Source of the DNA: a candidate division FCPU426 bacterium
GTDB taxonomy: Bacteria > Oederibacteriota > JAAXVQ01 > JAUVAV01
Assembly (NCBI GenBank): GCA_040756875.1
Contig: JBFLYH010000002.1
Coordinates: forward strand, 703,078-767,077
Reading direction: 5' to 3'
Length of the DNA stretch: 64,000 bases
The position numbers were made by a program, and so were the translations under genes. Under the pieces are notes generated by a model that was not told the DNA's origin, made no database searches, and saw only the letters and a program-made list of their open reading frames with translations. This document shows positions 2,377 to 36,482 of the stretch, in pieces. Each line of letters opens with the position of its first letter. The first letter of the stretch is position 1.

Positions 2377-4242
<1,866 letters not shown>

Positions 4243-4332: not shown

Positions 4333-4359
4333 TTATCGGCTTGAAAAACCTCTTTTTTA
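4333..4359 (-). promoter_or_regulatory. sigma-28-type promoter upstream of ftsH
   Basis: Minus strand TAAA-AAAGAGGTTTTTCAA(15)-GCCGATAA, exact FliA consensus, in the tilS-ftsH intergenic region. Confidence 0.7.
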
Positions 4360-9360: not shown

Positions 9361-11841
9361 TTAAGAAGAGATCGGGATAGGAATAGCCAAACCAACTTGG
9401 ATGGCAACAGGAGTATAAATATCAATATCTTGGCGAGGAGTATTGATAGAAATAATTAACGAATATCGACTTTTTCTATTCCATCTATGTAAACTATTTC
9501 TTTCACGCCACCATCCCACTGCAGGATAAACAGCAATTTTGTTTGAATTTGAAAGATCAATAGCTCGGCCTTTCCATTTATCAGAATGTATCGATCCCAC
9601 ATTTCTAGCTTCACCTATTAACCACCTATCCCTTGGGCCTACTGTGCCTGGTGATAGGCCGTCTTGACGGGCCTGAGAGTTAATGCGTTCAACAAACTGT
9701 TTTTCAGACTCTCCAGGACCATTCATTTCAAACCGAAATGCATGCGAGGCGTATCTGTAACGGTTATCCCATCCAATTTCACCTGGACCAGGTTCGATAA
9801 AATACGAGAGTGTTACTCTCATTTCAATTGGAGTTTCACCTAATTCAGCAAGTACTTCTTTAGGCCAGGGCAACCTATAAAGATGCATCGCATTTGTTAT
9901 GTATACATTTTTCTTTTTATTAAATGGCTGAAGCTCTGCCTGAGCTATTAAAGTTAATGAATTTGACGCGCAATAAAGCGCCCTTTCCAGATTGGGTACA
10001 CCATATCCACAAATTCGAATTAATCTCACGTAATCACGCTTTGTGGGGTTTGTTACATTCATAAACCGCGACTTCATCTCATCAGTCCATTCTGCTGTAT
10101 GAACTATCAACGCACGAATGGTTTCAGGCCAAGACTCAGGATATCGCGCGTATATTTTTGCTGCCATCCATGAAGCTTGCGCAGTAGCCGCGCTTGTTTG
10201 ACCAAAAACAGAAAACTGGGCTATCTGAGGATCAGAGTGTGTAGAAAGCAATCCAAGATCATCTGAATTAATTATTGAATCATTAGGACCTTTGGCGACA
10301 TTTCCGCCTTCAAATAGAACATCTGGTTTTAATGGCCACTTATTTTCAGGCCAAACCGACGACGTCGTACTATATGGCGACAAACCACCACTTGGTGCGA
10401 TTGCAGAGAAGGCCTTTAGACTTTGATCGACAATATTTATTTTAGTTGTATAAGCGCCTATTGTTAATGCATTCCACGATTGTCCGGGATCTTGGATTTC
10501 GCTTGTTAAATTAGCCTCCGGGTATCTTCTCCAGTATTCCGCACCGATAACATTCCCACCACTTACAATAAGCAACCTGTGTATGTCATCGCTATAACCC
10601 GATGATAAAGCATCAATTTCCGCCGACCAAGATGATGGCCGTCCGCGATCAATGCTATCCGACGATGTAATTGCCATACAAATAATACGTTTACGCTTAG
10701 GGGAATGTATTTCAGCCAAACTTATTCCCTGTGCTGTTAAATAGCCCCATAGTTCTCTGGGATTTTGAGCAGGGTGTGGGGGAAGTATTTTCACAGACTC
10801 GAGACAATGTTGAATATCGATTGGATCATCATTATTAAGTAGCGTTAGTAAATCACCATAAACTGCCGTCCCGGCCATTAAAGTGCCATGAGCTCTATTT
10901 GGTTGATCATCATTTATTCCCCATTCGGCTCGAACTGTATGCAAATCGCCATTATGTAATATCGGCGCTAATAAAATGTGGCCATTATTTACACCTGTAT
11001 CCAAAATACAAATTGCTACACCAGAAGTATTATTGAACAAACAGCGGTTAAGGAGATTTCTTGCGACTTGTAACTGTTGTTGATTATCAAGTTCTAATAA
11101 ATATGTTGCAACTGCTTTTGCCAATCTAAATTCCGCAATATCATCCGATGATTCAATTATTCTCTCTAATTGACTCCGATTTGCACATATTAAAACGACA
11201 GCACGCTCGGGAAATTTGAGGAATCCCTCGGCAATATTTATTCCCAGTCTGTTTGCTAATTCAACAAACCGTCTAGTCGAGTCACCTTTCGCTTCGTTAA
11301 GCCACACTTCAATCCACCCAGGTGTTTCACCCGGTATCTTCTCAAGCTCATCGCACCAAAAGGATTCTAGGACAACGCGATGAATCTCAGACACACTTTC
11401 AATTAGTTTCTTATTTTTAGGCTTGTTACTTCGGCGATTTAATTCTTCGGCATATGCTTTAATTTTATTTAAAAAATAGGAGCGCTTATTGATAGGTATA
11501 TAAACGGTGGCTTGAATTCGCTCAGTTTCCCCGCTTGCTATTCTACGGACATTCAATAAACGTATATCCGAAGATACTCTTTCCAAGCTCTGGAATGCAA
11601 GGTCAAAACCAGGCTCTCCGGCAAACCCAAGGTAAACGCCTTCTCTTTCCACATGAATTTGAGTATACCGCTGTTCTGTTTCTTTCCATGCTTTCAAGAA
11701 AGAATCTCTAAGAAAGATACTATGATTTACGCGGACTCTTTGAGGAATTCGAAAATCCGAAGATCCTTTTCGGGGGTTGGTAAATTCGATCGCTTTTGTT
11801 GGGGCATTTAAAAATATATGTCTATATTGCTCTCCAGCCAT
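9361..11841 (-). CDS. S8 subtilisin-like protease, IetS/Y4bN-type
   Basis: ILDTGV (Asp), AHGTLMAG (His), GQTSAA (Ser), WPETIRALIVH, GYGVP; no signal peptide; AT-rich; follows AAA ATPase. Confidence 0.85.
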   Translation of the reverse strand: MAGEQYRHIFLNAPTKAIEFTNPRKGSSDFRIPQRVRVNHSIFLRDSFLKAWKETEQRYTQIHVEREGVYLGFAGEPGFDLAFQSLERVSSDIRLLNVRRIASGETERIQATVYIPINKRSYFLNKIKAYAEELNRRSNKPKNKKLIESVSEIHRVVLESFWCDELEKIPGETPGWIEVWLNEAKGDSTRRFVELANRLGINIAEGFLKFPERAVVLICANRSQLERIIESSDDIAEFRLAKAVATYLLELDNQQQLQVARNLLNRCLFNNTSGVAICILDTGVNNGHILLAPILHNGDLHTVRAEWGINDDQPNRAHGTLMAGTAVYGDLLTLLNNDDPIDIQHCLESVKILPPHPAQNPRELWGYLTAQGISLAEIHSPKRKRIICMAITSSDSIDRGRPSSWSAEIDALSSGYSDDIHRLLIVSGGNVIGAEYWRRYPEANLTSEIQDPGQSWNALTIGAYTTKINIVDQSLKAFSAIAPSGGLSPYSTTSSVWPENKWPLKPDVLFEGGNVAKGPNDSIINSDDLGLLSTHSDPQIAQFSVFGQTSAATAQASWMAAKIYARYPESWPETIRALIVHTAEWTDEMKSRFMNVTNPTKRDYVRLIRICGYGVPNLERALYCASNSLTLIAQAELQPFNKKKNVYITNAMHLYRLPWPKEVLAELGETPIEMRVTLSYFIEPGPGEIGWDNRYRYASHAFRFEMNGPGESEKQFVERINSQARQDGLSPGTVGPRDRWLIGEARNVGSIHSDKWKGRAIDLSNSNKIAVYPAVGWWRERNSLHRWNRKSRYSLIISINTPRQDIDIYTPVAIQVGLAIPIPISS

Positions 11842-11853
11842 TAAAAATTACCT

Positions 11854-12822
11854 CTACAGCCTTTTATGTGTTGCGCGCCTTTCCCCGATCATTTGTAGTA
11901 GGAGTTCTGTACTAACCGTTTTCATGTTATTCAGAATGGCTTTTTTAATTGCATCTCTGCAGACTTGTGCTATTTCCGCATGACTTAGACCCTTACTCTC
12001 TTTTAAAACTTTTTTCCAAATAAAATTATTTGAATAAAATTCACCGAGGATATTTCGTATCAACTTTCTACGATCTTCAACTTCGGGCTCTGTATAATGC
12101 AGAACATCATCAAATCTCCTAAAAAGTGCAGCATCTAGCAATCTCGGGCTATTTGATGCCGCAATAATAAGGCTATCGGATGTATTATGTTCAATGAACT
12201 GCAAGAAGGAATTTAAGACTCTGCGCATTTCTCCGACATCGTTATCTAATGTCCGTGCACCACCAATCGCATCAAATTCATCAAACAAATAGACACCTTG
12301 ATTTTTTTGAATTTGTTCAAATATCAGACGCAATTTTGCACTAGTTTCGCCCATGAATTTAGTGACCAACTTATCAACCTGGACAGAATAAAATGGCAAT
12401 CTTAATTCATGTGCAAGAATTCTGCTGGTCATTGTCTTGCCTGTTCCTGGCGGACCTATTAACATTATTTTTCTTCTATGAAAAAGACCATAGCTTTTAA
12501 GAATATGCTGTTGTCTAAACTCATGAATAATTCTTTCGATCCTGTTTAATAATGCACTTGGTACCACTAAGGCAGATTTCGGAACATAGGTATCTTCAGG
12601 TAATAACAAATCCAAAAGGTCGTTCGGAACCCTTGATAATTTCGTCCTATTTTCTCGTCTTGCGTTTTCAACAATATCTCTAATATCATGTGCAAGCGCA
12701 CCATGACCTTGCTGTGCCTCTTGGGCTGCTACTTGTAATGCAACCGTGAAGAACATTTCTTGATCTTCGCCAAAGTGTGACCGAATTAGAGCTTTTATCT
12801 GTTCGGCCGTTGCCATTCTCAT
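11854..12822 (-). CDS. AAA+ ATPase, IetA-type
   Basis: [41 protein letters not shown]; 12 bp upstream of the S8 gene. Confidence 0.88.
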   Translation of the reverse strand: MRMATAEQIKALIRSHFGEDQEMFFTVALQVAAQEAQQGHGALAHDIRDIVENARRENRTKLSRVPNDLLDLLLPEDTYVPKSALVVPSALLNRIERIIHEFRQQHILKSYGLFHRRKIMLIGPPGTGKTMTSRILAHELRLPFYSVQVDKLVTKFMGETSAKLRLIFEQIQKNQGVYLFDEFDAIGGARTLDNDVGEMRRVLNSFLQFIEHNTSDSLIIAASNSPRLLDAALFRRFDDVLHYTEPEVEDRRKLIRNILGEFYSNNFIWKKVLKESKGLSHAEIAQVCRDAIKKAILNNMKTVSTELLLQMIGERRATHKRL

Positions 12823-13091
12823 CCCTCATTAAAGTTAAATTTCAAAGATATAACCTATTAATCCTAGTAATTGGTTCAGTTATATCATGTTAAACACTGC
12901 ATTAATAGACAATAAAAAGTAAAAATACCAGACATTCGATTGCGTAGTTTGGCCTTTTCTTTATTTTTCTCAGCCGTTTTTAAATTCGTTTTAAAAGTAA
13001 TAATGCAATCTCCTATATACCCAAGTTACAGCTCTGGTTGCTTTTATTGTTTATCTGAATCCACTAACATCTACTTTACCCGCCTTCCGCC

Positions 13092-13460
13092 TTACGCTCC
13101 TGCCAATCCCCGCTCCAGGGCCACGATGATCTCCTGATTCAGGCTCACGCCTTCACGCTCGGCCTCGTAGGTGAGTTTCCGGTGCAGGGTTTTCGGTATA
13201 CGGATGTTTAGTTTGCCGCTATAAGCATCTCGGGGCAAGGGCACGGGTTTGCCACTTTCTAAAGTAGCCTTGATCCACAACGCCTTGGCCTTTTCGACCA
13301 TCTTCAACGCCTCTTCCTCGGTTTCTCCCTGGGAAATGCACCCGGGCAAATCCGGAATAAGGGCGGCAAAACCTCCCTCTTCCTTATCTGGCACCAACTC
13401 AATCCGATAGTCCATGGCTAGAAAACGCTTTACGTCTTGAACATGGGAGTTTTTATTCAT
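13092..13460 (-). CDS. hicB: HicB-family antitoxin
   Basis: IPDLPGCISQGETEEEAL domain plus RHH-type C-terminus YSGKLNIRIPKTLH..GVSLN. Confidence 0.9.
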   Translation of the reverse strand: MNKNSHVQDVKRFLAMDYRIELVPDKEEGGFAALIPDLPGCISQGETEEEALKMVEKAKALWIKATLESGKPVPLPRDAYSGKLNIRIPKTLHRKLTYEAEREGVSLNQEIIVALERGLAGA

Positions 13461-13465
13461 TTTGT

Positions 13466-13714
13466 TTACACCTCTTTCTGACCGCTTAAATGACGCCTGA
13501 GCACTTCCCTTACCTGCTCGATATAAACGCGTTTGACCGGTGAACGGCGCGGTACAACGACAACCGGATATGTTTGATGCCGAAAAACCATATGACTTCC
13601 CTTCCCCGAACTGGCCAAATACCCCAATTGCATTAAAACCCTCTGCAACTCCTCGAATCTAAGTTCCTTAGGGGCGTGAAGTATCTTGATAAAGAGTTTC
13701 TCGAGTCTGGTCAC
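13466..13714 (-). CDS. hicA: HicA-family mRNA interferase toxin
   Basis: 82 aa, basic, GKGSHMVFRH motif, upstream of hicB. Confidence 0.85.
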   Translation of the reverse strand: MTRLEKLFIKILHAPKELRFEELQRVLMQLGYLASSGKGSHMVFRHQTYPVVVVPRRSPVKRVYIEQVREVLRRHLSGQKEV

Positions 13715-13753
13715 CGAAGGCCGCCTCCTCGCGAACGCTCCGGCTTAATATTT

Positions 13754-13782
13754 ATAGTACCATATATGGTACTACGTTTCAA
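13754..13782 (-). promoter_or_regulatory. hicAB promoter with overlapping perfect 20-bp palindromic operator
   Basis: Minus strand TTGAAA-N17-TACTAT; TAGTACCATATATGGTACTA (13755-13774) covers the spacer and -10. Confidence 0.75.
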
Positions 13783-13899
13783 CTGCCTGCGCCGGAAGCT
13801 TTAATTGGTGATTTAGACCTTCGGAAACTGGAATCCTTGCGGAATATTTTACCGTGGGTAAATCCTCAACCCTTACCAGAACACGTACAAACTAGATCC

Positions 13900-13943
13900 A
13901 GATTGCTTCGTTATCCCATTACTGGAGACACCTCGCAATGACA
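13900..13943. repeat. half of a GATTGCTTCG...CCTCGCAATGAC palindromic (REP/RPE-like) element
   Basis: AGATTGCTTCG..N20..CCTCGCAATGACA resembles one arm of a widespread palindromic repeat family (recalled, not searched). Confidence 0.5.
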
Positions 13944-14035
13944 CCTCTTAACTCATTGATACAGGTAGCCGATCACTTAAAAAACGCTTGCCCAAACCGC
14001 AGGGGGCATGGTATTTTCGCCCACACGGCTATAAC

Positions 14036-14112
14036 GGCGGAGTAGCTCAGTTGGTCAGAGCAAACGGTTCATACCCGTTGTGTCCGGGGTTCGAATCCCT
14101 GCTCCGCTACCA
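14036..14112 (+). tRNA. tRNA with CAT anticodon, most likely elongator tRNA-Met
   Basis: GGCGGAG acceptor paired with CTCCGCT, TAGCTCAGTTGGTCAGAGC D-arm, AACGG-TTCATAC-CCGTT anticodon arm, GGTTCGAATCC T-arm, encoded CCA; TTGCCC..TGGTATTTT promoter upstream. Confidence 0.95.
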
Positions 14113-14320: not shown

Positions 14321-14354
14321 AAAAAGCCCTGCACCGCTGGTGCAGGGCTTTTTT
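14321..14354. terminator. bidirectional intrinsic terminator
   Basis: AAAAAGCCCTGCACC-GCT-GGTGCAGGGCTTTTT perfect hairpin between convergent units. Confidence 0.85.
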
Positions 14355-14428: not shown

Positions 14429-14989
14429 TTAATGCGCCTTGCGCACGATCCAGACGTCCGGCCCGTGCGTTTCCACGCTGCCGCGCTCGAGCTGGGACTG
14501 GGAAAGCAGCCGCCGTACGCGGTCCGCGTCCATGGCCGCCTGCTGATAGGCCCGTTTCAGCGCCTCCGGGCCCGTGGCCAGCCACTTCCGCCAGGCGGGC
14601 AGGCCGCTGCGGGGCACGCCGATGAAATATTCCCCCTCCACTTTCAGCACGCGGGCCAGCTCATTGAGCAGGTCCAGGGGCTGCGGCCACATTGCCAGGC
14701 TGCCGAAGGAAACCACGGCCTCCACGCTGCGGTCCGGCAGGCCGAGGGGCAGGCCGGCCTGGGGCAAATACTCCGCCCGGTCCGCCACGCCCCAGGCCCG
14801 GGCCTGGGCCACGGCGGCTTTGCGCTCCGCTTCCTCAAACCCGAGCCCCACGAGATCAAGGTCCGGATTGGCGCGCAGCAATTCCAGGCCCGGCCACAGG
14901 CCGCCCGGCCCGAGTTCCAGCACGCGGCCCACGGTCACCCGCGGCCGGATGCGTTTTCCCGTCATATGCGACAAACTGCTGCCAAACAC
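14429..14989 (-). CDS. class I SAM-dependent methyltransferase-like protein (divergent)
   Basis: RVLELGPGG motif I, LPDRSVEAVVS, LNELARVLK; AGGAGG RBS. Confidence 0.7.
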   Translation of the reverse strand: MFGSSLSHMTGKRIRPRVTVGRVLELGPGGLWPGLELLRANPDLDLVGLGFEEAERKAAVAQARAWGVADRAEYLPQAGLPLGLPDRSVEAVVSFGSLAMWPQPLDLLNELARVLKVEGEYFIGVPRSGLPAWRKWLATGPEALKRAYQQAAMDADRVRRLLSQSQLERGSVETHGPDVWIVRKAH

Positions 14990-15046: not shown

Positions 15047-15448
15047 TCAATTGAGGGTAAGGTTCTGCTGGTTGCGGACTTTGGCCAGGACCTTCTCGGC
15101 GAAATCCGGCAATTCGGTGGGATCGAACGGTTTGACGATATAACCGTCTGCCCGGACCGCGAAACCGCGGTCAATGTCCGCCTCCAGGCCCTTGACGGTC
15201 ACAAAGATCACGGGAATGTGTTTGGTTTCTTCGACGGTTTTCAGGGTGCGGCAGATTTCGTAGCCATCGAGCATGGGCATCATGACGTCCAGGAGGACCA
15301 GGTCCGGCCTCTCCTGGTAAACCTTGGCCAGGGCCTCCTGGCCGTTGGTGGCGGTCACGACTTCGAACCCCCGGCGGGTGAAAATCTCGCTGATGACCTC
15401 CACCATGTCCGGATTGTCGTCCACCACCAGAACCTTCTCTTTGGGCAT
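15047..15448 (-). CDS. stand-alone response regulator receiver protein
   Basis: VLVVDDN, LLDVMMP, FVT, KPF; own TTGCAT..TATAAT promoter and GAGG RBS place the start at MPKEK. Confidence 0.9.
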   Translation of the reverse strand: MPKEKVLVVDDNPDMVEVISEIFTRRGFEVVTATNGQEALAKVYQERPDLVLLDVMMPMLDGYEICRTLKTVEETKHIPVIFVTVKGLEADIDRGFAVRADGYIVKPFDPTELPDFAEKVLAKVRNQQNLTLN

Positions 15449-15543
15449 GCGGCGCCTCGGGAAGAACAGGGCTTTTAAAACCATATTATAGACGCCTCGC
15501 GGGCTCATATGCAATTGAAAAAACCGGGTTCCCGTTCCCGGGT

Positions 15544-16332
15544 TCAGCGCACCACGAAGTCCATCTGCTCGGCCTTGATGGCGCCGCGCAGGTGCGCAAT
15601 GGCTTGCCCGTGGATCTGGCAGACCCGCGATTCCGTGACCTCCAGGATGGCCGCGATTTCACGCAGGGTCAGCTCTTCGTAGTAGTAGAGCGTGAGCACC
15701 AGCCGCTCCCGTTCGGGCAGCCGCTCGATCAGGCGCGCCAGCACCTCGCGGGCTTCCTTGGCCGCGAGCTGGGTGAAGGCGCTGCCCAGGCTCCGGTCCA
15801 CGGGGTTGCCCTCGGCGGCGACCACGTCCCGGCGCTTCTTTTCCCGGTCTTCCATCAGTTCGTCCAGAGAGACCACGGGCGGCACGTTGACGTCGTCCAA
15901 CAGGGAGTGGAAGCGCTTCAGGGAGAGCTTCATGTGCCGGGCCACTTCCGTATCCGACACTTCGCGGTGGTGCTTTTTTTCCAGCGTCTCGTACGCCTGT
16001 TCCAGTTCCCGGTTTTTCTGCCGCACGGACCGCGGCACCCAGTCCAGGGCCCGCATTTCGTCCAGGATGGCGCCCCGGATGCGGAAAAAGGCGTAAGTCG
16101 AGAATTTTCCGCCCAGATCGGGATTGAACTTCTCGACCGCGTCCACCAGCCCGATGAACCCCGCGCTCACCAGGTCGTCCACGTCCAACCACGCGCGGTT
16201 CTGCGGAATGGTCATCCGCTCCAGGGTAAAGCGCACCAGCGGCACGTGGCGCTTCAGCAATTCCTCCCTGGCCACCGGGTCCTGCGTCTTCCGATACGTC
16301 TTCCACAATTCGCGTTCCGTTGCTGCTTCCAT
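15544..16332 (-). CDS. fliA: FliA/WhiG-family sigma factor (sigma-28)
   Basis: DDLVSAGFIGL, FSTYAFFRIRGAILDEMRALDWVPRSVR, LYYYEELTLREIAAILEVTESRVCQIH. Confidence 0.93.
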   Translation of the reverse strand: MEAATERELWKTYRKTQDPVAREELLKRHVPLVRFTLERMTIPQNRAWLDVDDLVSAGFIGLVDAVEKFNPDLGGKFSTYAFFRIRGAILDEMRALDWVPRSVRQKNRELEQAYETLEKKHHREVSDTEVARHMKLSLKRFHSLLDDVNVPPVVSLDELMEDREKKRRDVVAAEGNPVDRSLGSAFTQLAAKEAREVLARLIERLPERERLVLTLYYYEELTLREIAAILEVTESRVCQIHGQAIAHLRGAIKAEQMDFVVR

Positions 16333-16345
16333 TTTCTCCACCCCC

Positions 16346-17728
16346 TTAAATGCCGAGTTCACGCATTTTATTGAACAGCGTTTTGTAGTTGATCTTGAGG
16401 AGCTTGGCGGTCTTGACTTTGTTCCACCGGGTTTCCTGCAGCGCCCGGCTGATGGTTTCCCTTTCCACGCGGCGCGCGACTTCCTGGCAGACTTCCTTGA
16501 GCGGCCGCACGGCCGCCGTCGTGGCCGCAGCGGACTGCTCGGGCCGGGGCGCGTCGAAGCGGTCGGTGGGAAGGTGCGCCAGCTCGATCGTGCGTTCGGC
16601 CATCACCAACGCCCGCTTCACCGCGTTCATGAGCTCGCGCACGTTGCCCGGCCAGGCGTAGTCGTGGAAAAAAGCCAGGACTTCCGGCGAAAACCCGGTG
16701 ACGCTCTTGTTGAACTGGCGGTTGAACAGGGCGAGAAAATGCTGGGCTAAAAGGTCGATTTCGTCGCCGCGGGCGCGCAGGGGCGGCAGGACCACGGTGA
16801 ATTCGTTCAGGCGGTGGTACAAGTCTTCGCGGAAGTTGCCCGCGGCCATGGCTTCCTCGAGCGAGCTGTTGGTCGCGGCCACGACCCTGACGTCGATGTC
16901 CACCTCGTGCTTGCCGCCGAGACGGCGGAGGCGGCGCTCCTGCAGCACGCGCAGGAGCTTGATCTGCATGGCCTGGGGCAGATTCCCGATCTCATCCAAG
17001 AAAAGCGTGCCGCCCTGGGCCATCTCAAAGCGGCCGGGCTTGCTGTCCTGGGCGCCCGTAAAAGCGCCCCGTTCGAAACCGAAGAGTTCGGATTCCATGA
17101 GATTTTGCGGCAGGGCGCTGCAGTCGATGGAGACCAGGGGCTTGTCTGCGCGCGGGCTCTTGGCGTGCAGATGCGCGGCCACCACTTCCTTGCCCGTGCC
17201 GCTTTCGCCCCGGATCAGAACCGTCACGTCGTAGGGAGCGATCCGTTCGACGGTTTCCACCACCTGCTGCATGGCCGGGCAGGACCAGACCAGCTCCGGG
17301 CTCTGGCGCTGGGCGATCTGCCCTTTCAACAGCGTGACTTCCTTTTGCAGACGGCTGGTCTGCAGGGCGTTTTTCACCGTGATCCGCAATTCGTCGAGGT
17401 TTAGGGGTTTGCTCAGGTAATCATAGGCGCCGAATTTCATGGCCCTGACCGCGGCGTTCAGGTCGTCGAAAGCGGATAGAATAACCACAGGCTGGTCGCG
17501 CTGGCGGTCTTTCAGCTGGCGCAGCACTTCCAAGCCGTCCATGCCCGGCAGCTTGAGGTCGAGAAAAATAAGGTCCGGCCGCTGGCTGCCGGCGGTTTCG
17601 AGCCCTTGTTCGCCAGTGAATGCCGTGGACACGTCGTACCCTTCTTCGGACAAAGCCTTTTTGACAATCCAGCAAATTTCAGGCTCGTCGTCGACGATGA
17701 GGATGGTGGCTGCCGCAGATTGTGACAT
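16346..17728 (-). CDS. sigma-54-dependent NtrC/AtoC-family response regulator
   Basis: Receiver domain (IVDDE, FLDLKLP), GESGTGKE, intact GAFTGA, FLDEIG, WPGNVREL, Fis-type HTH. Confidence 0.95.
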   Translation of the reverse strand: MSQSAAATILIVDDEPEICWIVKKALSEEGYDVSTAFTGEQGLETAGSQRPDLIFLDLKLPGMDGLEVLRQLKDRQRDQPVVILSAFDDLNAAVRAMKFGAYDYLSKPLNLDELRITVKNALQTSRLQKEVTLLKGQIAQRQSPELVWSCPAMQQVVETVERIAPYDVTVLIRGESGTGKEVVAAHLHAKSPRADKPLVSIDCSALPQNLMESELFGFERGAFTGAQDSKPGRFEMAQGGTLFLDEIGNLPQAMQIKLLRVLQERRLRRLGGKHEVDIDVRVVAATNSSLEEAMAAGNFREDLYHRLNEFTVVLPPLRARGDEIDLLAQHFLALFNRQFNKSVTGFSPEVLAFFHDYAWPGNVRELMNAVKRALVMAERTIELAHLPTDRFDAPRPEQSAAATTAAVRPLKEVCQEVARRVERETISRALQETRWNKVKTAKLLKINYKTLFNKMRELGI

Positions 17729-17775
17729 GTGGCCCCTGGGCGCAGGCTCCTTCTACGAATATAGCTATAGACTAC

Positions 17776-17790
17776 GCAAAAGGCGTACCA
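17776..17790 (-). promoter_or_regulatory. sigma-54 (-24/-12) promoter of the activator-fliA operon
   Basis: Minus strand TGGTACG-CCTT-TTGC versus consensus TGGCACG-N4-TTGC, 47 bp upstream of the start codon. Confidence 0.8.
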
Positions 17791-17939
17791 AGGGCTTGGG
17801 CGCAGGCGGGCAAATGCCGGATTTCAGCGCAGGCGGGCAAAGCGTTGTTTTTATGGGGTAAAAATCCGGAGGGAAATCCTGCCGCAAATCCCCGCTGGCG
17901 GAGACCGCGGCTCGCGGGAGGACCTAGGTATTCAAATCC

Positions 17940-18215
17940 CTAATCTCTGGTCTGCTTTTCCTGGGAAAGGGGAAACCATTTATCCACTACATCCTTGCCG
18001 GAAACGTGGTATTCTCCCCTGGCGATTCGCCCTTTTATTTCCATTACTTTTTCCCGGCGAAAACAATCCGCGCGGGTATACGCGTCCATCAGGCTGCGCA
18101 GCAAGGCAGCCGGAATTTTCGGGGCCGGCTGCCGGCGGCGGCCGTTCTTTAAAACCCCTTTATTCTCCAGCTTTTTCTTCCAATGACGAAACGAGGCCAT
18201 GTCAACCAACTTCAT
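17940..18215 (-). CDS. FlgM-like anti-sigma-28 factor
   Basis: C-terminal RREKVMEIKGRIARGEYHVSGKDVVDKW matches the FlgM sigma-binding motif; overlaps the kinase stop; fliA nearby. Confidence 0.75.
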   Translation of the reverse strand: MKLVDMASFRHWKKKLENKGVLKNGRRRQPAPKIPAALLRSLMDAYTRADCFRREKVMEIKGRIARGEYHVSGKDVVDKWFPLSQEKQTRD

Positions 18216-19374
18216 TGGCAACCACTCCCTTCCCCCTGACAGCTTCAGTATCGGGAAGGGCACTCTGGGACTTAAGATTTTTTTGTTCTGATCCGACAGG
18301 CAGTGAAACGATAAAACGGGTGCCGTGGCCCACCTGGGATTCGACCCGGACGCTTCCGCCCAGCTCGTCGATGATCATTTTCACGACGTACAATCCCAAG
18401 CCCGAGCCGCCGCTGTGCCGGGAAAAAAACGGCTCAAATACGTGCTCCAAGTCGTCGGCCGCGATGCCGCGCCCGGTATCCGCGATTTCCACGCTGGCCA
18501 TGCCTCTCGGACCAGGCTGGGTGACGACCCGCAGGGTCCCGCCCTGGGACATGCTGTTGAGCGCATTGATGCAAATATTCAAAAATACCCGCTGCAGGTG
18601 TTCGTCGTCACCGTGGATGGGCGGAAGCGGATCAGCCAATTCCAGGGCCAGTTCCACGCCCTGGGCCAGGCATTTTTCCTTGATGAAGCCCACGACTTCG
18701 CGCACGCAGGCGTTGAGATCCACGGGCTCCTGTTTGAGCTTGAGGGGCCGGGCCGCGGCCAGCAGTTCCCGGATGGTGCCGTCGATTTCGGAGATTTTTC
18801 TTACGATGGTGTCCATCATGCCCTGCACCTCGGGTTGCTCGCTGAGCTTGCTTTTCAGGAACTGCACCGAGGCGCCGATGATGGAAAGCGGGTTGCGGAT
18901 TTCGTGGGCCATGGCCGCGGCCAGCTGTCCGACGGCCGCGAGTTTCTCCGCGGTCAACAGGCTCTGCCGGGTCTTCAACAAATCGTTGTACAATCGCTTG
19001 ATTCGCAGCATGACCGCGACCTTGGCCATAAGTTCCTCGTGATCGAAGGGCTTGAGAATGTAATCGTCGATCCCTTCTTCCAGGCTGCGGATTTTGCCTT
19101 CTTTGGAATCCAGGCCGGTCACCATGATGATGGGAATGTAAGGAATGGAGGGGTCCTGGCGGACGCGGGCGCAGATTTCCATGCCCGAATACTCCTGCCC
19201 CCTCATCACTTCGTCGAGGATCAGCAGGTCCGGATGCCGGCGGCTGATGGCGGCCAGGGCGTCCGCGCCGCTCGAAAGCAGCGTGACATCGTGCCCGGCC
19301 TGGCCGAGCACGATCTGATAAAGCCGCAGCGTATCCTCGTTGTCATCCACGCAATAGACGTGGCCGTGTTCCAT
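18202..19374 (-). CDS. cytoplasmic hybrid histidine kinase (receiver-HisKA-HATPase)
   Basis: N-terminal receiver (VDDN, ILDEV, KPF), AHEIRNPL H-box, N-box, DTGRG, GSGLGL; no TM or sensor domain. Confidence 0.93.
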   Translation of the reverse strand: MEHGHVYCVDDNEDTLRLYQIVLGQAGHDVTLLSSGADALAAISRRHPDLLILDEVMRGQEYSGMEICARVRQDPSIPYIPIIMVTGLDSKEGKIRSLEEGIDDYILKPFDHEELMAKVAVMLRIKRLYNDLLKTRQSLLTAEKLAAVGQLAAAMAHEIRNPLSIIGASVQFLKSKLSEQPEVQGMMDTIVRKISEIDGTIRELLAAARPLKLKQEPVDLNACVREVVGFIKEKCLAQGVELALELADPLPPIHGDDEHLQRVFLNICINALNSMSQGGTLRVVTQPGPRGMASVEIADTGRGIAADDLEHVFEPFFSRHSGGSGLGLYVVKMIIDELGGSVRVESQVGHGTRFIVSLPVGSEQKNLKSQSALPDTEAVRGKGVVANEVG

Positions 19375-19493
19375 GGTCCACCTCCCGAACCTAAAGCGAG
19401 GTCCCTATGGTAGTCTTTCGACCGGCCTCTGGCAAGCGCTTTTCCGTTTTTTCGAAGACAAGCGCCGGGGTGATGCGAGAAACGAAACTTTTA

Positions 19494-19520
19494 TTATCGG
19501 CGTCCAAAAAGAAAACTTTA
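19494..19520 (-). promoter_or_regulatory. sigma-28 promoter of the kinase-flgM operon
   Basis: Minus strand TAAAGTTT-TCTTTTTGGAC-GCCGATAA, a perfect match to TAAAGTTT-N11-GCCGATAA. Confidence 0.88.
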
Positions 19521-31630: not shown

Positions 31631-32886
31631 CGCCGCCATCCCGCTTCAGCCACTTCGCCAAACACCAGGCTGTCGTTGTTCCCGCCGAATCCCGAGGAGT
31701 TCGTCAGGCACGTGCGCAAACGCAGGCTCCGCGCTTTCCGCACTACTTCCACCGGGCACTCCGGGTCCGTCTCCTCGTGGTTGATCGTCGGCGGCAGCGT
31801 CTGGTGCTTCAGGCTCAGCACGCCGATCACCGCTTCGATCGCGCTCGCCGCTCCCATCGCATGCCCGATCATGGACTTGGGCGCGGTCACCGGCGGCACG
31901 CGTTCCCCGAACACTTCCCGGAACGCCTGGGCCTCGGTCCGGTCGTTCCCCGGCGTTCCGGTCCCGTGCGCCACGATCCCGTCAATCTCCTCCGCCTTCA
32001 GCCCCGCATCCTTCAAGGCCAGGGCCACCGACTGCCGGGTCCCCCACCCTTCGGGGTGCGGCGTGGACAGGTGGTACGCGTCGCTCGACCACCCATATCC
32101 CAGCACCCGGGCGTAGGCTTTCCCGCCCCGTTGCCTCAGGCTCTCGCCGGATTCCAGCACCAGCGCCGCTCCGGCCTCGCCCATGATCAGCCCCCGCCGC
32201 GCGCGGTCAAACGGGCGGCAGCAGTCCGGCGCCATGGCCCGCAGGCTGCAAAAGCCCGTGTAATCCGGCTCGGCCAGCAAATCCATGCCGCCGGCCAGAA
32301 CCACGTCGGCCAGGCCCTGGCGAATGCGCTCCACGGCCAGGGACAGCGCGTAGCCGCTGGCCGCGCAGGCGTTCGTGTTCGTGCTCTGCCAGCCCGTGAG
32401 CCCCAGCCGCTGCGCCATCTGGTAGAGAAAGCTGTAGGTCACGTTCTCGCTCACGATGTCGCGCGTGACCTCCAGGGCGCTGGCCAGGTCCTGCGTTTCC
32501 CAGGTCCGCTTGCAGCGCACCACGTGCTCGTTCAGGTCGCCGTGGGTGGTGCCGAACACCAGGTCCACGGCGCCGTGCTGCGAGCGCTGGTCCGCGCCCA
32601 GCCACCCCGCGTCCGCCAAGGCTGCCCGGCCGGCCGAGAGCGCCAGCCGCGCCGCCGGATCCAGGGCTTTTTGTTCCTCAGTGCTCAAGTTGCGCAGGCC
32701 GTCCAAATCCTTGATCTGCGCGGCCATGTGCACGGGCAGCCAGCGGGTGTCGAAGCGCGTCACCGGGCCCACGCCGGACGTCCCGGCGACCAGGGCCGGC
32801 CAGAACGCCTCCGCGCCCGCGCCCAGCGGCGTGTTCAGGCCCAATCCGGTCACATAGACTTCAGGCCTGCCGGCGCGGGCCGTCAT
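31627..32886 (-). CDS. beta-ketoacyl-ACP synthase (KS), copy 1
   Basis: NACAAS (Cys), AHGTGT, KSMIGH, GFGGNN; true start is the ATGA overlap with the Lnt-like stop, not the 807-aa ORF start. Confidence 0.92.
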   Translation of the reverse strand: MTARAGRPEVYVTGLGLNTPLGAGAEAFWPALVAGTSGVGPVTRFDTRWLPVHMAAQIKDLDGLRNLSTEEQKALDPAARLALSAGRAALADAGWLGADQRSQHGAVDLVFGTTHGDLNEHVVRCKRTWETQDLASALEVTRDIVSENVTYSFLYQMAQRLGLTGWQSTNTNACAASGYALSLAVERIRQGLADVVLAGGMDLLAEPDYTGFCSLRAMAPDCCRPFDRARRGLIMGEAGAALVLESGESLRQRGGKAYARVLGYGWSSDAYHLSTPHPEGWGTRQSVALALKDAGLKAEEIDGIVAHGTGTPGNDRTEAQAFREVFGERVPPVTAPKSMIGHAMGAASAIEAVIGVLSLKHQTLPPTINHEETDPECPVEVVRKARSLRLRTCLTNSSGFGGNNDSLVFGEVAEAGWRR

Positions 32887-34637
32887 GCCGGCCTCTCCTG
32901 GCCGGACTTGGAAAAACGCTCGCGCCCCCAGCTCCAGGCCATCATCGCGACCAAAACGGCGGTCAGGCCCAGCACCAGCCATCCCATCCAGTCGCCGCAG
33001 CGCACGTAAACCGTTTTTCCGTTGAGCAGGGGCAGGCGTTTGACCAGCGCCGCGCGCTGGCCGAAGGGCGCGCGGTCGCGGACCAGGCCAAGCGGATCCA
33101 CGTACGCCGCGCTCGCCGTGCTCGAAACCAGCCCGACCCAGCGCCGGGTTTCCACGGCGCGGAAGCAAGCCATCTGCAGGCGCATGTTGAAAAACACCGG
33201 CGTGGGAAACCAGTTGCCCGTGCCGGCGTTCAGGATGACCTCGCCGCCCAGGCGCACGCCCTGGACGAAATACTGAGGAAACATGATTTCCTCGCACACC
33301 CGCAGGATCACCGCGCCCTGCGGCAGCTGGAACACCTTGCTGGCCGATCCAGGCGACAGGTCTTTCATGTCCTCGTCCACGGAGGTAAGCTTGAGCAGTT
33401 CGTAGGTCGTCGCGAAAACACGGTTCAGCAGGCGGATCGCGCCGTTCACCAGCGGCCGGCCGGGCATGTATTCCCCGAAGGGTATGAGGTACTGCTTCAG
33501 GTAATAATCGCGGATCTTTCCCTTCGCGTCGACCAGGTACCAAACATTGAAGCGCCGTTCGGAGTCCAGGGCGGTGACCAGCCCGATGATCGCCGGCACG
33601 CCCGCCTCCTCGAGTATGTCCTGGAAGTCCCGCCACACCTTGGCCGTGGAGGGCAGGGTCAAGGGCAGTGCGCTCTCGGTAAAAACCAGCAGCTCGGCGC
33701 GGTCGGCTTTGGCGTTCAGGGCCAGCCGGCGGAAAAGGACGATGGCGGACTGCTTGATGCGTTCGCTCCACTCGCCATAATTGCCCGCGTCGAACTGCCC
33801 CTGCAACAAGGCCGGACGGAGGCTGCGCTCGGCCTGCGATTGCAGGCGTTCCACCTTGGCCGCGTCGAGGTTGCCGGCCACGATCAGGGCCGCGAAGCCC
33901 AGGCCCAAAACCGCGGCCATCAGGCTGTTGACGAGAAGCGGGCGCCCCTCCGCGGCCGGCACCTTGCCGGCAAGCACGGGCTCGGGCCGGCGCACATCCC
34001 AGGCGCGCAGGAAGCGCCAGGCCAGGAGGGCCAGGCCGGCGGCCACGCACAGCACGAAATAATCAGCGCCCAGCACGCCGGTCAGGGACGCCATTTGCAT
34101 GAGCGGCGGAAGCCCGGCCAGCGGATACGCATACAGCAGAATGGGCGGCGGGAAGAACCAGATTTTGGGCGTCAGCACCAGGCGCAGAAATTCGAAGGCC
34201 GCAAAATTCGCCGGTGCGAACAGCAAATACCAGGCGGGAAAGCGGCGGATGCAGGCGCCGGCCCACAGGCCCACGTTCCCGAAAATGCCGTACACCATGG
34301 CCGCGAGAAAAAGAAAAATCAGCGGCGTGGCCAGGGGAAACGAGGGCAGCATCTCGAACCACAGGGTGGCGGGAATCAAAAACATGGCCAGGCCGGACAG
34401 GCCGCACCAGCGGTAGGCTTCGCGGCCCTGGTAGCGCAGCATAATCATGAAGGTGGGCATTGGCACCAGAAACACCAGCAGCGCGGACAGGATGTTCGAC
34501 TCCGGCAGCAGGTAATTGGGCCACGCGAGATAGGCGCACAGCGCCTGCAGGATCAGCAGCCATGGCATGGGGCGTTTCAACGCGGATACCATCCATCCCC
34601 TCCGGGTCTCAGGCGCCGGTTTTTCGGCGAGCCGCAA
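32883..34637 (-). CDS. apolipoprotein N-acyltransferase (Lnt)-like, paralog 1
   Basis: Multi-TM N-terminus, nitrilase triad FTES/YLKQYLIPFGEY/VCEE, FRAVE, TVYVRCGDW; start uncertain. Confidence 0.85.
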   Translation of the reverse strand: MRLAEKPAPETRRGWMVSALKRPMPWLLILQALCAYLAWPNYLLPESNILSALLVFLVPMPTFMIMLRYQGREAYRWCGLSGLAMFLIPATLWFEMLPSFPLATPLIFLFLAAMVYGIFGNVGLWAGACIRRFPAWYLLFAPANFAAFEFLRLVLTPKIWFFPPPILLYAYPLAGLPPLMQMASLTGVLGADYFVLCVAAGLALLAWRFLRAWDVRRPEPVLAGKVPAAEGRPLLVNSLMAAVLGLGFAALIVAGNLDAAKVERLQSQAERSLRPALLQGQFDAGNYGEWSERIKQSAIVLFRRLALNAKADRAELLVFTESALPLTLPSTAKVWRDFQDILEEAGVPAIIGLVTALDSERRFNVWYLVDAKGKIRDYYLKQYLIPFGEYMPGRPLVNGAIRLLNRVFATTYELLKLTSVDEDMKDLSPGSASKVFQLPQGAVILRVCEEIMFPQYFVQGVRLGGEVILNAGTGNWFPTPVFFNMRLQMACFRAVETRRWVGLVSSTASAAYVDPLGLVRDRAPFGQRAALVKRLPLLNGKTVYVRCGDWMGWLVLGLTAVLVAMMAWSWGRERFSKSGQERPA

Positions 34638-36273
34638 CTACGGTCAGCAACAGCGTCAGCAGTACGCACAGCCAGGCAAACACATCTCCGAACCGCGCGT
34701 AAAAAGTCAGGCCGTCAAGCAAGGGCAGGGTCGGCACGGCCACCACCCGCTTCCCATAAGGTGTTTCACTCCGCACCGCGCCCAGGGCGTCGATTGTGGC
34801 CGCCGCGCCCATGTTGGCCACCACCCCGATCCAGCGCCGGGTCTCCACCGCCCGGAAGGCGCTTGTCTCCAGGTTTAAATACCAGTCCACCGGCGTCTTG
34901 AACCAGTTGACGGTCCTGGGCGTGAGAATCACATCGGCGCCTTGCATGACCGCCTGCCTGAAAAACCGGGGAATGATCGTTTCAGTGCATACCTTCAGCG
35001 CCACCCGTGCGCCGGCCACGTCAAATATTTTTTCCTGTTTGCCGGCACGAAGATCATAGTAATCCCGCGGAATGGCCGTAATTTTCAAGACCCGATAGGA
35101 CGTGCGCAAGAGTTTGTTTACTCCCGTCATCACCGGGTCCACCAAGCTGCGCAAGGGCAGGTACTCGCCAAACGGCGTCAGGTAGCGTTTGAGGTAATAA
35201 TCCTGGACCGTTCCCTGGGCGCTGATCAAATACCAGATATTGAAAACCTGCTCCTCCTCCACCGTGGTCGTAAGCCCCACGAAGGCCGGCAGGCCCACTT
35301 CCTTGAAGATGGTGCGGAGGTTCTGCCAGGCGTGCTCGTCCGCCGGCAGGGTCATGGGCAGTGCGTTCTCGGTGAAAACCAGCACCTGACCGCCTTGGGC
35401 CAGGGCTTCCAGGCTCATGTCACGATAGGTGCGCAGGGCAAATCCCTGCTGGGGCCTGCTCCAGTCCTTGGCCCGCGAGGGATCGAACTGGGATTGCAGC
35501 AACGCGGGACGCAGCGTGCGCCGCGCCTGGTCCTGCAGGCGGCTGACGCGCAGGGCGTCTACGTTACCCAGCATGAACAGCGCGAACAAAACCGCCACCG
35601 TGCCGCTGGCCACGGCCACTGTGAGGGTCCGCTGTCCGGGAGCGAGGGCGGGTATGTTCTGGGTGACGGGGAGGTGGGTGCGAAACCACGCCAGGCGGCC
35701 AAGAAGCGACAGCGCGACCAAGGCCAGGAGGGAGCTGATGAAAAAGGCAAGGAAAGCCGGTCCGTAGTATCCGGTGTAGGCGCTCATTTGGATCAGGGGC
35801 GGAAGCCCGGCAAAAGGAAAGGCAAACAACAACGAAGGAGGCGGCACCAGTGAAAAATGCTCGGCCAGCAGCACGCGCATGAACTCCTGGTTGCAAATGA
35901 TGGCCGGCGCCGCCAGGGTGAACGCCCAGGGCAGGCGCCGGTAAATGAACGAACCCAGATAACCGCAGGCGCCTCCCAGCAGAAAGGACAGCGCCAGTAC
36001 CAGCAGCCAAATCAATACGCCGGTCACGGGAAAGAAATTCATATGGACCAGGTGGACGGTCGGCAAAAGAACCATGGCCACTACAGATAATCCGGACCAC
36101 ACAAAAACCTGCCTCCCCCGGTAGGCCAGGAAGATGATGAAGTAGGTCGCGCCCATCAAGGGCAGGAGCAGGGCCGAAACGGGGTTGGGCCGGTAAAGGA
36201 TGGGGTTGGGAAACGCCAGAAAGGCAATCAGCGCCTGGATCAGCAGCAAACTTACGGAGAGAAAGGCTGGCAT
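34609..36273 (-). CDS. Lnt-like N-acyltransferase, paralog 2
   Basis: FTEN/YLKRYLTPFGEY/VCTE, FRAVE, TFYARFGD. Confidence 0.85.
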   Translation of the reverse strand: MPAFLSVSLLLIQALIAFLAFPNPILYRPNPVSALLLPLMGATYFIIFLAYRGRQVFVWSGLSVVAMVLLPTVHLVHMNFFPVTGVLIWLLVLALSFLLGGACGYLGSFIYRRLPWAFTLAAPAIICNQEFMRVLLAEHFSLVPPPSLLFAFPFAGLPPLIQMSAYTGYYGPAFLAFFISSLLALVALSLLGRLAWFRTHLPVTQNIPALAPGQRTLTVAVASGTVAVLFALFMLGNVDALRVSRLQDQARRTLRPALLQSQFDPSRAKDWSRPQQGFALRTYRDMSLEALAQGGQVLVFTENALPMTLPADEHAWQNLRTIFKEVGLPAFVGLTTTVEEEQVFNIWYLISAQGTVQDYYLKRYLTPFGEYLPLRSLVDPVMTGVNKLLRTSYRVLKITAIPRDYYDLRAGKQEKIFDVAGARVALKVCTETIIPRFFRQAVMQGADVILTPRTVNWFKTPVDWYLNLETSAFRAVETRRWIGVVANMGAAATIDALGAVRSETPYGKRVVAVPTLPLLDGLTFYARFGDVFAWLCVLLTLLLTVVAARRKTGA

Positions 36274-36482
36274 GTTTGCTTGCCCTTTCTTCAGTCAGCC
36301 GATATGGAGCCCTCCGGGCATGCCCGGGGTACCCATTCCTGCCCTGCGTTTCTTGCAGGATAGGCGGCGACATCCTCGCAGCAGAAGATCCGCATTCATC
36401 CCCGGCCATAGGCCGGGGTTTCCTGCGAAGGGGATGAAGTGGAGCCGCGTCGCGTTTCCGGGCCTTCTCCCAGCGAAGCTGC

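Follow-up and report, generated by a model that had tools for sequence, protein, structure and literature searches.

A six-gene cassette with sigma-54 and sigma-28 components

We analysed a 64,000-nucleotide stretch of DNA (the window; C2:703078-767077) from a candidate division FCPU426 bacterium (GCA_040756875.1, contig JBFLYH010000002.1; genome G000, 3.22 Mb, with contigs labelled C1, C2 and C3). Six minus-strand genes between positions 14321 and 19520 of the window form a cassette that encodes a hybrid kinase, an FlgM-like anti-sigma factor, an NtrC-type activator, a FliA/WhiG-family sigma-28, a single-domain receiver and a methyltransferase (Table 1). Domain searches placed all six, including the sensor-less kinase, the FlgM-like gene, the activator with its GAFTGA motif and fliA, where an initial annotation made from the sequence alone had put them. 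The comparison set comprised 15 genomes of the order (the window's genome and 14 relatives). Gene content, synteny, promoter-motif conservation, phyletic pattern and phylogeny are reported as observed in these genomes; promoters, binding, phosphotransfer and transcription steps are predictions read from motifs and conservation.

The kinase retains its phospho-acceptor aspartate, H-box (HEIRNP) and G1 box, and its core is nearest to AtoS/ZraS, scoring under the cut-offs of both families. The activator matches Sigma54_activat at 233.5 bits, as well as Response_reg and HTH_8 (Pfam), and thus combines the elements of an NtrC-type enhancer-binding protein: a receiver domain, an AAA+ domain with GAFTGA and Walker A motifs and a Fis-type helix-turn-helix. 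It falls under the equivalog cut-offs of AtoC, NtrC, ZraR, FlbD and FlgR and therefore has no named orthologue. Kinase and activator both resemble the AtoS/AtoC and ZraS/ZraR families, and the kinase gene adjoins the activator region in 13 loci (window included), wherever the contig extends to the kinase.

The window sigma contains Sigma70_r2, r3 and r4 (Pfam) and belongs to the FliA/WhiG family (TIGR02479). Its start is probably the ATG at 16332, because the resulting 262 residues equal the length of its closest homologues; the order's closest named homologue comes from candidate division FCPU426 (70% identity). The receiver most likely starts at the ATG at 15448. For the methyltransferase, structure and sequence searches named no substrate and pointed to a generic enzyme.

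The cassette is predicted to consist of three transcription units separated by terminators. A housekeeping-type TTGCCA-N17-TACCAT element precedes the kinase in six of 12 loci (the window, G032, G031, G022, G021 and G019), and many relatives have a terminator hairpin between the FlgM-like gene and the sigma-54 promoter described below. The receiver and methyltransferase genes do follow the sigma-28 gene, as the initial annotation had noted. They appear, however, to form a separate sigma-70-type unit behind a terminator and not the tail of a sigma-28 operon, and equivalent TTGCnn-N17-TATAAT elements lie upstream of the receiver gene in relatives.

Table 1. Features of the cassette and of the flagellar-cluster regulators. 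Positions are those of the window unless prefixed C2; promoters, terminators and binding sites are predictions.
Feature	Position	Strand	Details
Cytoplasmic hybrid kinase, REC-HisKA-HATPase	18202-19374	-	390 residues; domain matches; no sensor or membrane domain
FlgM-like anti-sigma-28	17940-18215	-	91 residues; ATG at 18215, ribosome-binding site GGGAG; Pfam FlgM
NtrC-type activator, REC + Sigma54_activat + HTH_8	16346-17728	-	GAFTGA and Walker A (GESGTGKE)
FliA/WhiG sigma-28 ('W'; the window sigma)	15544-16362	-	TIGR02479, 250.1 bits against a cut-off of 189.6
Single-domain receiver	15047-15448	-	133 residues; acceptor Asp in DLVLLD; longer open reading frame 15047-15514
Class I S-adenosylmethionine-dependent methyltransferase	14429-14989	-	last cassette gene
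Sigma-28 consensus promoter upstream of kinase	19494-19520	-	TAAAGTTTTCTTTTTGGACGCCGATAA; 16/16 positions of TAAAGTTT-N11-GCCGATAA; 120 nucleotides before kinase start
Sigma-70-like promoter of kinase/FlgM-like operon	19407-19435	-	TTGCCA-N17-TACCAT; promoter scan
Sigma-28-type promoter of FlgM-like gene	18247-18275	-	TTAAG-N16-CCGATACT; 3' end of kinase gene, 31 nucleotides before FlgM-like ATG
Two exact 15-nucleotide direct repeats, candidate activator sites	17800-17841	.	GCGCAGGCGGGCAAA on the plus strand; 27 nucleotides apart, just upstream of the -24 box
Sigma-54 promoter of activator/sigma-28 operon	17775-17790	-	TGGTACGCCTTTTGCG (TGGTAC-N5-TTGCG); GG-N10-GC; ends 47 nucleotides before activator ATG
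Intrinsic terminator after sigma-28 gene	15524-15541	-	CCGGGAACGGGAACCCGG + TTTTTT; terminator scan
Sigma-70-like promoter of receiver/methyltransferase unit	15485-15514	-	TTGCAT-N18-TATAAT
Bidirectional terminator hairpin closing cassette	14321-14353	both
Flagellar-cluster activator	C2:972252-973739		closest paralogue of window activator, 54% identity (10 paralogues listed)
Flagellar-cluster divergent sigma-28	C2:974135-974911		38% identity to window sigma; TIGR02479, 192.7 bits, just over cut-off
Flagellar-cluster FlgM	C2:932901-933437		sigma-28-like promoter TAAG-N15-ACCGATGA

A conserved, predicted sigma-54 promoter precedes the activator and sigma-28 genes

The sigma-54 promoter motif that the initial annotation placed before the activator is present and conserved. 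Upstream of the activator start, YGGYAY-N5-TTGCN occurs in 15 of 15 loci, about 50 nucleotides before the start in 13 of them, at -122 in G032 and at -20 from the aligned start in G019. The window copy has doublets of the TGGCAC-N5-TTGCW type, lies upstream of a gene and occurs in a genome that encodes sigma-54, as expected of such a promoter; RpoN is present in all 15 genomes. GAFTGA is kept in 14 of 15 activators and the H-box in 12 of the 12 kinases compared. The conservation of the promoter motif supports sigma-54 dependence of the activator/sigma-28 operon, and we infer that the kinase would pass phosphate to the activator and that the encoded activator would stimulate its own operon.

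The two direct repeats just upstream of the -24 box are candidate binding sites for the activator. The exact 15-mer has only these two copies in the genome and consequently defines no activator regulon.

Sigma-28 probably drives its own anti-sigma factor

The FlgM-like protein belongs to the FlgM family (PF04316), matching the C-terminal sigma-28-binding domain at 32.8 bits against a cut-off of 25. It carries a conserved C-terminal motif (FRKEKVxEIKxxIxxGxYxVSGKxVVDKWF) and a conserved N-terminal motif (SYRxWRNKLxxKGF). An FlgM-family match lies inside the cassette in all 15 genomes, over the cut-off in 10 and weaker in five. When the window sigma and the FlgM-like protein were submitted as alignments to complex prediction, the score was 0.59 compared with 0.48 for a control, which weighs neither way.

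Negative feedback through a co-transcribed FlgM had been proposed for this locus. It gains support from an element that the initial annotation had missed: a sigma-28-type promoter, T[TAC]AAG-N15/16-CCGATA(C/A)T, which immediately precedes the FlgM-like gene in all 13 loci that cover this region. The distance from promoter end to gene start is 21-84 nucleotides (nine loci with a callable start). In 11 loci, the strict pattern with a 16-nucleotide spacer matches once per locus, always before the FlgM-like gene; it has no other match in 185,465 bases on both strands and none in reversed controls. The remaining two of the 13 loci have a 15-nucleotide spacer. Because the element lies, depending on the locus, inside the last codons of the kinase gene or behind its stop, it is no by-product of protein conservation. 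The window-type sigma is its likely reader, since it is the sole sigma-28-family match (E<=1e-20) in seven non-flagellated genomes that have the promoter. As read from these motifs, the conserved core of the cassette is sigma-54 driving the activator and sigma-28, and sigma-28 driving its own anti-sigma factor.

The cassette is retained with and without flagella

Orthologues of the window sigma are present in 15 of 15 genomes at 54-83% identity. To the extent that their contigs cover it, all 14 relatives show the order kinase/FlgM-like/activator/sigma/receiver/methyltransferase; the methyltransferase is syntenic in 13, and the contig of G024 stops before it. FlhA occurs in seven of the 15 genomes and flagellin in the same seven, so the cassette does not follow the flagellar regulon in its distribution (15/15 compared with 7/15). 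The eight genomes without FlhA and flagellin are 100, 100, 98, 97, 96, 91, 89 and 87% complete, and one of the 100%-complete ones belongs to the same genus as the window's genome. The proposal that the circuit is not tied to flagella is borne out here, with the cassette kept in all eight relatives that lack FlhA and flagellin. Export of FlgM is impossible in the eight genomes without FlhA.

Between the two members of the window's genus, identity is 79-83% for the core regulators, 63% for the FlgM-like protein and 61% for the methyltransferase. In at least five relatives, a gene for a fusion of a Fur-family protein with FeoA (240-255 residues) is inserted between the receiver and methyltransferase genes (L042:8486-9211 and L043:8333-9052, with equivalents in L044, L050 and L052); it is not found in the window's genome.

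We regard it as probable that the cassette is a conserved regulatory unit of flagellar origin that works independently of the flagellum, has at least one non-flagellar output and consists of a sigma-54 step followed by delayed FlgM feedback.

A second, divergent set of regulators in the flagellar cluster

The statement that the locus has no flagellar genes holds for the window, where none was found among the 51 open reading frames scanned. It does not hold for the genome, as a full flagellar regulon lies 205-255 kb away on the same contig, at C2:928-978 kb. This regulon begins with flgF, flgG, flgA, flgI, FlgM, flgL, fliW, csrA, flagellin, fliD and fliS, continues with a kinase gene, flgB, flgC, fliE, fliF, fliG, fliI, flgD and flgE, and extends through motA, motB, fliL, fliM, fliN, fliP, fliQ, fliR and flhA. 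Directly 3' of flhA are genes for a second NtrC-type activator, a second FliA-family sigma, a PilZ protein, an HDOD protein and another kinase. Predicted sigma-54 promoters lie upstream of the flgB and fliL operons; none was visible for the flagellar-cluster sigma directly after flhA.

The second set resembles the cassette in having the activator gene followed by the sigma gene and a sigma-28-like promoter on its FlgM gene. Its distribution is that of the flagella. The second sigma is present in seven of seven flagellated genomes, 2-3 kb downstream of flhA, and otherwise occurs as a remnant with its activator in G025 (87% complete, no FlhA or flagellin); a second FlgM is found in six of the seven flagellated and in none of the eight non-flagellated genomes. 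The initial annotation had reasoned that a full flagellar regulon elsewhere could account for the cassette. Such a regulon exists, complete with paralogous activator, sigma-28 and FlgM, but the comparison across genomes indicates that it does not account for the cassette.

Several features of the flagellar cluster are recorded here in their own right. The flagellin genes of flagellated genomes share a putative promoter, TTTAAGAAA-N12-nnCGAAGTA, and a CsrA-type leader hairpin, ACGGCAGGGATGCCG, which is conserved beside the ribosome site (G000, C2:935-938 kb, and the flagellin loci of relatives). With fliW and csrA just upstream of flagellin, the hairpin points to FliW/CsrA control of flagellin translation. 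The 650-nucleotide gap between motB and fliL (C2:963850-964507) contains units of about 150 nucleotides, seen as repeated peptide strings in several frames, as well as a sigma-28-like site and a sigma-54 promoter right before fliL.

Phylogeny and origin of the cassette sigma

A maximum-likelihood tree of 47 sigma sequences, from which two database rows that duplicated genome rows were excluded, recovered the window-type sigmas as a monophyletic clade (support 98/94). The flagellar-cluster sigmas likewise form a single clade (100/100), whose branch measures 1.07 substitutions per site and carries a long-branch warning. We then considered 53 columns that are at least 80% conserved in 22 FliA/WhiG sequences outside both clades (a further two rows, one on a very long branch and the other containing a stop, were dropped from this count). 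Of these columns, 52 are kept in the window clade and 40 in the flagellar-cluster clade, which has lost 13; this argues that the window sigma represents the canonical FliA/WhiG lineage and the flagellar-cluster sigma is derived.

The sister of the window clade (94/82) comprises sigmas from two other families of the phylum, in which the gene order is flhA, activator, sigma and receiver, with a kinase further on. This arrangement suggests that the cassette descends from a duplicated or moved segment of a flagellar cluster. Two FlhA genes are present in four of five genomes tested from these families, and in the three genomes whose second locus includes flhA, the second sigma lies about 3 kb downstream of it. 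G087, G091, G092 and G093 (other families) have two FlhA genes each, with a sigma-28 gene 2-4 kb downstream of each, and probably possess dual flagellar systems.

That the window sigma is canonical by sequence and that its sister sits within a flagellar cluster would suit a different reading, in which the cassette belongs to the flagellar hierarchy. The window sigma would then be the true late-gene sigma-28, working with an FlgS/FlgR-like pair and FlgM; the flagellar-cluster copy would be a specialised helper, and retention of the cassette elsewhere would reflect recent loss of flagella. This genome does have the full flagellar set, sigma-54 promoters before the flgB and fliL operons and sigma-28-like promoters before flagellar flgM, after motB and before flagellin. 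However, eight of the 15 genomes, from at least five genera, lack both FlhA and flagellin, and because they are interleaved with flagellated genomes on the sigma tree, several independent losses would be needed. Wherever contigs extend, none of the eight shows damage to the open reading frames, to the catalytic motifs or to either conserved promoter. The flagellar-cluster sigma and FlgM have gone with the flagella (the G025 remnant of sigma and activator excepted). We therefore consider that reading unlikely and prefer that of a cassette independent of the flagellum.

A perfect sigma-28 motif upstream of the kinase

The initial annotation had rested its circuit on a perfect sigma-28 promoter upstream of the kinase, and the motif is present as described. 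The consensus used, TAAAGTTT-N11-GCCGATAA, is an extended enterobacterial form. With up to two mismatches allowed, it matches the window once, a result reached in none of 100 shuffles, and the site at 19494-19520 is the sole zero-mismatch match in the 3.22 Mb genome, the next best (among intergenic sites listed) having three mismatches. The shorter, 12-base TAAA-N15-GCCGATAA is not rare (18 matches across the 15 genomes compared with 25 in the reversed control).

It was suggested on this basis that a closed double positive loop exists, in which sigma-28 makes the kinase, the kinase acts on the activator and the activator makes sigma-28, with damping by FlgM yielding a switch or pulse generator. 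For this genome alone, we see such a loop as a real possibility at somewhat less than even chances. The site is intergenic and correctly oriented, the window sigma has retained the positions at which other FliA proteins are conserved, and the sigma-54 promoter and GAFTGA motif are intact. Yet the motif is found in none of the 11 relatives with the region covered, including the same-genus genome and four flagellated ones, and hence lies outside the conserved design. A sigma-70-like promoter (TTGCCA-N17-TACCAT) sits between it and the kinase start, either sigma-28 paralogue could be its reader, and two other excellent sigma-28 sites in the genome, upstream of ftsH and clpC, also lack conservation. 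The back-link from sigma-28 to the kinase is thus not supported as a principle of the design, with the motif in 0 of 11 relatives and the sigma-70-like promoter in six of 12 loci; it would be at most a feature of this genome.

The site near ftsH (4333-4359, minus strand; 91 nucleotides upstream of ftsH at 2377-4242) is the genome's second exact match to TAAA-N15-GCCGATAA, and a TAAA-N14-GCCGATAA site lies upstream of clpC on contig 1 (C1:994991). In several relatives as well, ftsH is about 10 kb from the cassette. A TTGCCA-N17-TAGGAT-type promoter upstream of ftsH is kept in 14 of 15 loci. A proteostasis regulon suggested by the ftsH and clpC sites was dropped, because these sites are not kept even within the genus whereas the sigma-70-like promoters are.

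Search for targets of the cassette sigma

The independence of the cassette from the presence of flagella implies that its sigma-28 needs at least one non-flagellar output. The best candidate is a giant gene at C1:464298-470117 (1,939 residues), to which we were led by a motif upstream of its orthologue in the non-flagellated genome of the same genus. The encoded protein has a hydrophobic N-terminal stretch that is signal-peptide-like by eye, is rich in Thr, Gly, Ser and Asn, and has a C-terminal FlgD Ig-like domain as its only Pfam match (29 bits against a cut-off of 27). The 11 orthologous loci share a conserved sigma-70 promoter (TTGACA-N17-TATAAT or TAAAAT), with a sigma-28-like element about 50 nucleotides upstream of it. 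The strict form of this element, T[TA]AA[GT]-N16-CGA[AT]A, occupies the same place in six of the 11 loci and has no matches in three other orientations. This pattern is suggestive, though not proof, of a giant secreted protein as a sigma-28 target.

Two other giant genes, C2:1078345-1099185 (6,947 residues; no Pfam family found in the first 3,885) and C3:94815-108422 (4,536 residues), have sigma-28-like sites 100-120 nucleotides upstream. On contig 1, a site close to a third paralogue of the activator was also considered and set aside, as there is no sigma-28 cassette there.

A number of points weigh against a flagellum-independent cassette with outputs of its own. The -10 box of the giant-gene element is weaker (CGAAAAT in several loci); the element is shifted in three loci, with a CGATACT box upstream, reads CGTTA in one and is absent from that place in another. 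More broadly, TAAA-N15-GCCGATAA is not enriched in the order (18 compared with 25 reversed) and its matches in relatives are mostly coding-like. TAAR-N16-CCGATA gave 46 matches in five non-flagellated genomes compared with 61 in reversed controls, and the 16 fetched were mostly inside long open frames. A matrix built on the FlgM-like promoter gave 32 matches in this genome compared with 27 in the control, with nothing above control beyond two sites. Since these motifs, the FlgM-like promoter excepted, do not exceed reversed controls, a sizeable non-flagellar regulon is not demonstrated. The matrix's second-best site, after the FlgM-like promoter itself, lies within the flagellar cluster, after motB; together with the TAAG-N15-ACCGATGA element of flagellar flgM, it indicates that the window sigma may work as a flagellar sigma in this genome. 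The genomes without flagellar genes are mostly metagenome bins (87-98% complete), the relatives are not independent samples, and every promoter discussed here is a motif; a search for sequencing runs containing the locus listed one DNA run, possibly its source, and no RNA run. Some non-flagellated genomes also tend to have longer terminal branches for the window sigma, a possible sign of relaxation.

The failure of motif searches to demonstrate a target regulon would also fit a decaying, functionless remnant whose motifs are due to chance or history. We find this very improbable: all 15 genomes keep the six genes and two promoter elements (sigma identity 54-83%), the compared open reading frames are free of stop codons, catalytic motifs are kept, and identity within the genus is 79-83% for the core regulators, 63% for the FlgM-like protein and 61% for the methyltransferase.

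Neighbouring features of the window

An AT-rich island (9361-14112; GC content about 41% compared with 63% around it) adjoins tRNA-Met (14036-14112) and sits between the cassette and its ancestral neighbours. It carries an IetA/IetS-type defence pair, consisting of an AAA ATPase (11854-12822; IetA, 244 bits) and a subtilase (9361-11841; IetS, 109 bits), and a HicA/HicB toxin-antitoxin pair (13092-13714). Elsewhere in the window, at 32883-38171, three tandem paralogues of about 560 residues have a C-terminal carbon-nitrogen hydrolase domain (apolipoprotein N-acyltransferase-like) and adjoin a cluster of acyl carrier protein, ketoacyl synthase and acyltransferase genes.

Discussion

The predicted elements of the cassette suggest a mechanism in three units. 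The kinase and FlgM-like genes would be expressed from a housekeeping-type promoter, as would the receiver and methyltransferase genes. The activator and sigma-28 genes would be expressed from the sigma-54 promoter only and, that being their sole source, would be made only in the presence of a phosphorylated NtrC-type activator. The simplest candidate for this activator is the one that the cassette encodes, phosphorylated by the kinase next to it. Sigma-28 would then recognise the promoter in the 3' end of the kinase gene, which would yield more of its own FlgM-type anti-sigma factor. The expected outcome is that the sigma-54 step reinforces itself and that negative feedback follows with a delay. 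In this genome only, the second, perfect sigma-28 promoter may place the whole kinase/FlgM-like operon under sigma-28 as well. The best candidate for a non-flagellar output would be the secreted protein of about 1,900 residues, and in flagellated members the cassette may also feed late flagellar genes.

Flagellar hierarchies that run from sigma-54 to sigma-28 use an NtrC-type pair (FlrB/FlrC in Vibrio, FleS/FleR in Pseudomonas, FlgS/FlgR in Campylobacter and Helicobacter) together with FliA and FlgM, and in Vibrio fliA is itself sigma-54-dependent. The cassette shares with them a soluble or simple kinase, a GAFTGA activator, predicted sigma-54 promoters, a FliA-family sigma-28, FlgM and a putatively sigma-28-dependent flgM promoter. 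It differs in being compact and away from the flagellar genes, where a second divergent set is found, in persisting in eight of 15 genomes without FlhA and flagellin, and in the N-terminal receiver domain of its kinase.

A parallel to this persistence comes from Legionella oakridgensis, which is reported to keep FliA and FlgM without flagella, with flgM expression dependent on sigma-28 (PMC5655016). As FlgM is not exportable via a basal body in that organism, other control is needed, and proteolysis is proposed there (PMC5655016). Retention of sigma-28 and FlgM without a flagellar regulon is common to both, as is the need to remove FlgM by a route other than secretion. Legionella has a single sigma-28 and has kept just fliA and flgM, whereas here the two are accompanied by genes for a kinase, a sigma-54 activator, a receiver and a methyltransferase. 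The flagellated members also have two sigma-28/FlgM sets, and the phylum is uncultivated.

Sigma-28 factors also serve programmes other than motility. Chlamydia has sigma-28 and sigma-54 with CtcB/CtcC, an NtrB/NtrC-type pair that acts during the same stage of development as sigma-54. In Streptomyces, WhiG is described as a non-flagellar developmental sigma-28 that works with RsiG and c-di-GMP (PMC12871210). The cassette resembles these cases in the probable use of a FliA/WhiG-family sigma for a non-flagellar programme. It differs from WhiG in that its anti-sigma factor is of the FlgM type and not RsiG, and from both cases in that sigma-28 itself would come from a sigma-54 promoter. Among the matches listed in a literature search on FCPU426, we found surveys and none on regulation by title or abstract; a search on two FliA paralogues returned nothing on point, and no further search was aimed at orphan sigma-54/sigma-28 cassettes. 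What differs here is that a whole control layer, kinase, sigma-54 activator and receiver included, is kept order-wide as one cassette beside a divergent second set.

A more far-reaching reading, tentative and less likely than not, is that an entire flagellar-type circuit has been freed from the flagellum and now acts by itself as a switch or source of pulses. It would control a surface or lifestyle programme such as expression of a giant secreted, adhesin-like protein. Its FlgM-type anti-sigma factor would then be released by non-secretory means, such as proteolysis or a phosphorylation-dependent step via the receivers of the cassette, and the conserved N-terminal SYRxWRNKLxxKGF motif could provide a handle for such release.

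For annotators, these genomes carry a caution, as matches to FliA and FlgM do not predict motility in them. Sigma-28/FlgM is the textbook example of a checkpoint in which gene expression is tied to the building of a secretion machine. In this order, the control layer of sigma-54 activator, sigma-28, FlgM and kinase outlives repeated loss of the machine, and a fast-evolving second copy stays with the flagellar genes. The order thus offers a natural experiment in the rewiring of a checkpoint circuit that has lost its mechanical input, and poses the questions of how FlgM is released without export and what an orphan sigma-28 transcribes.

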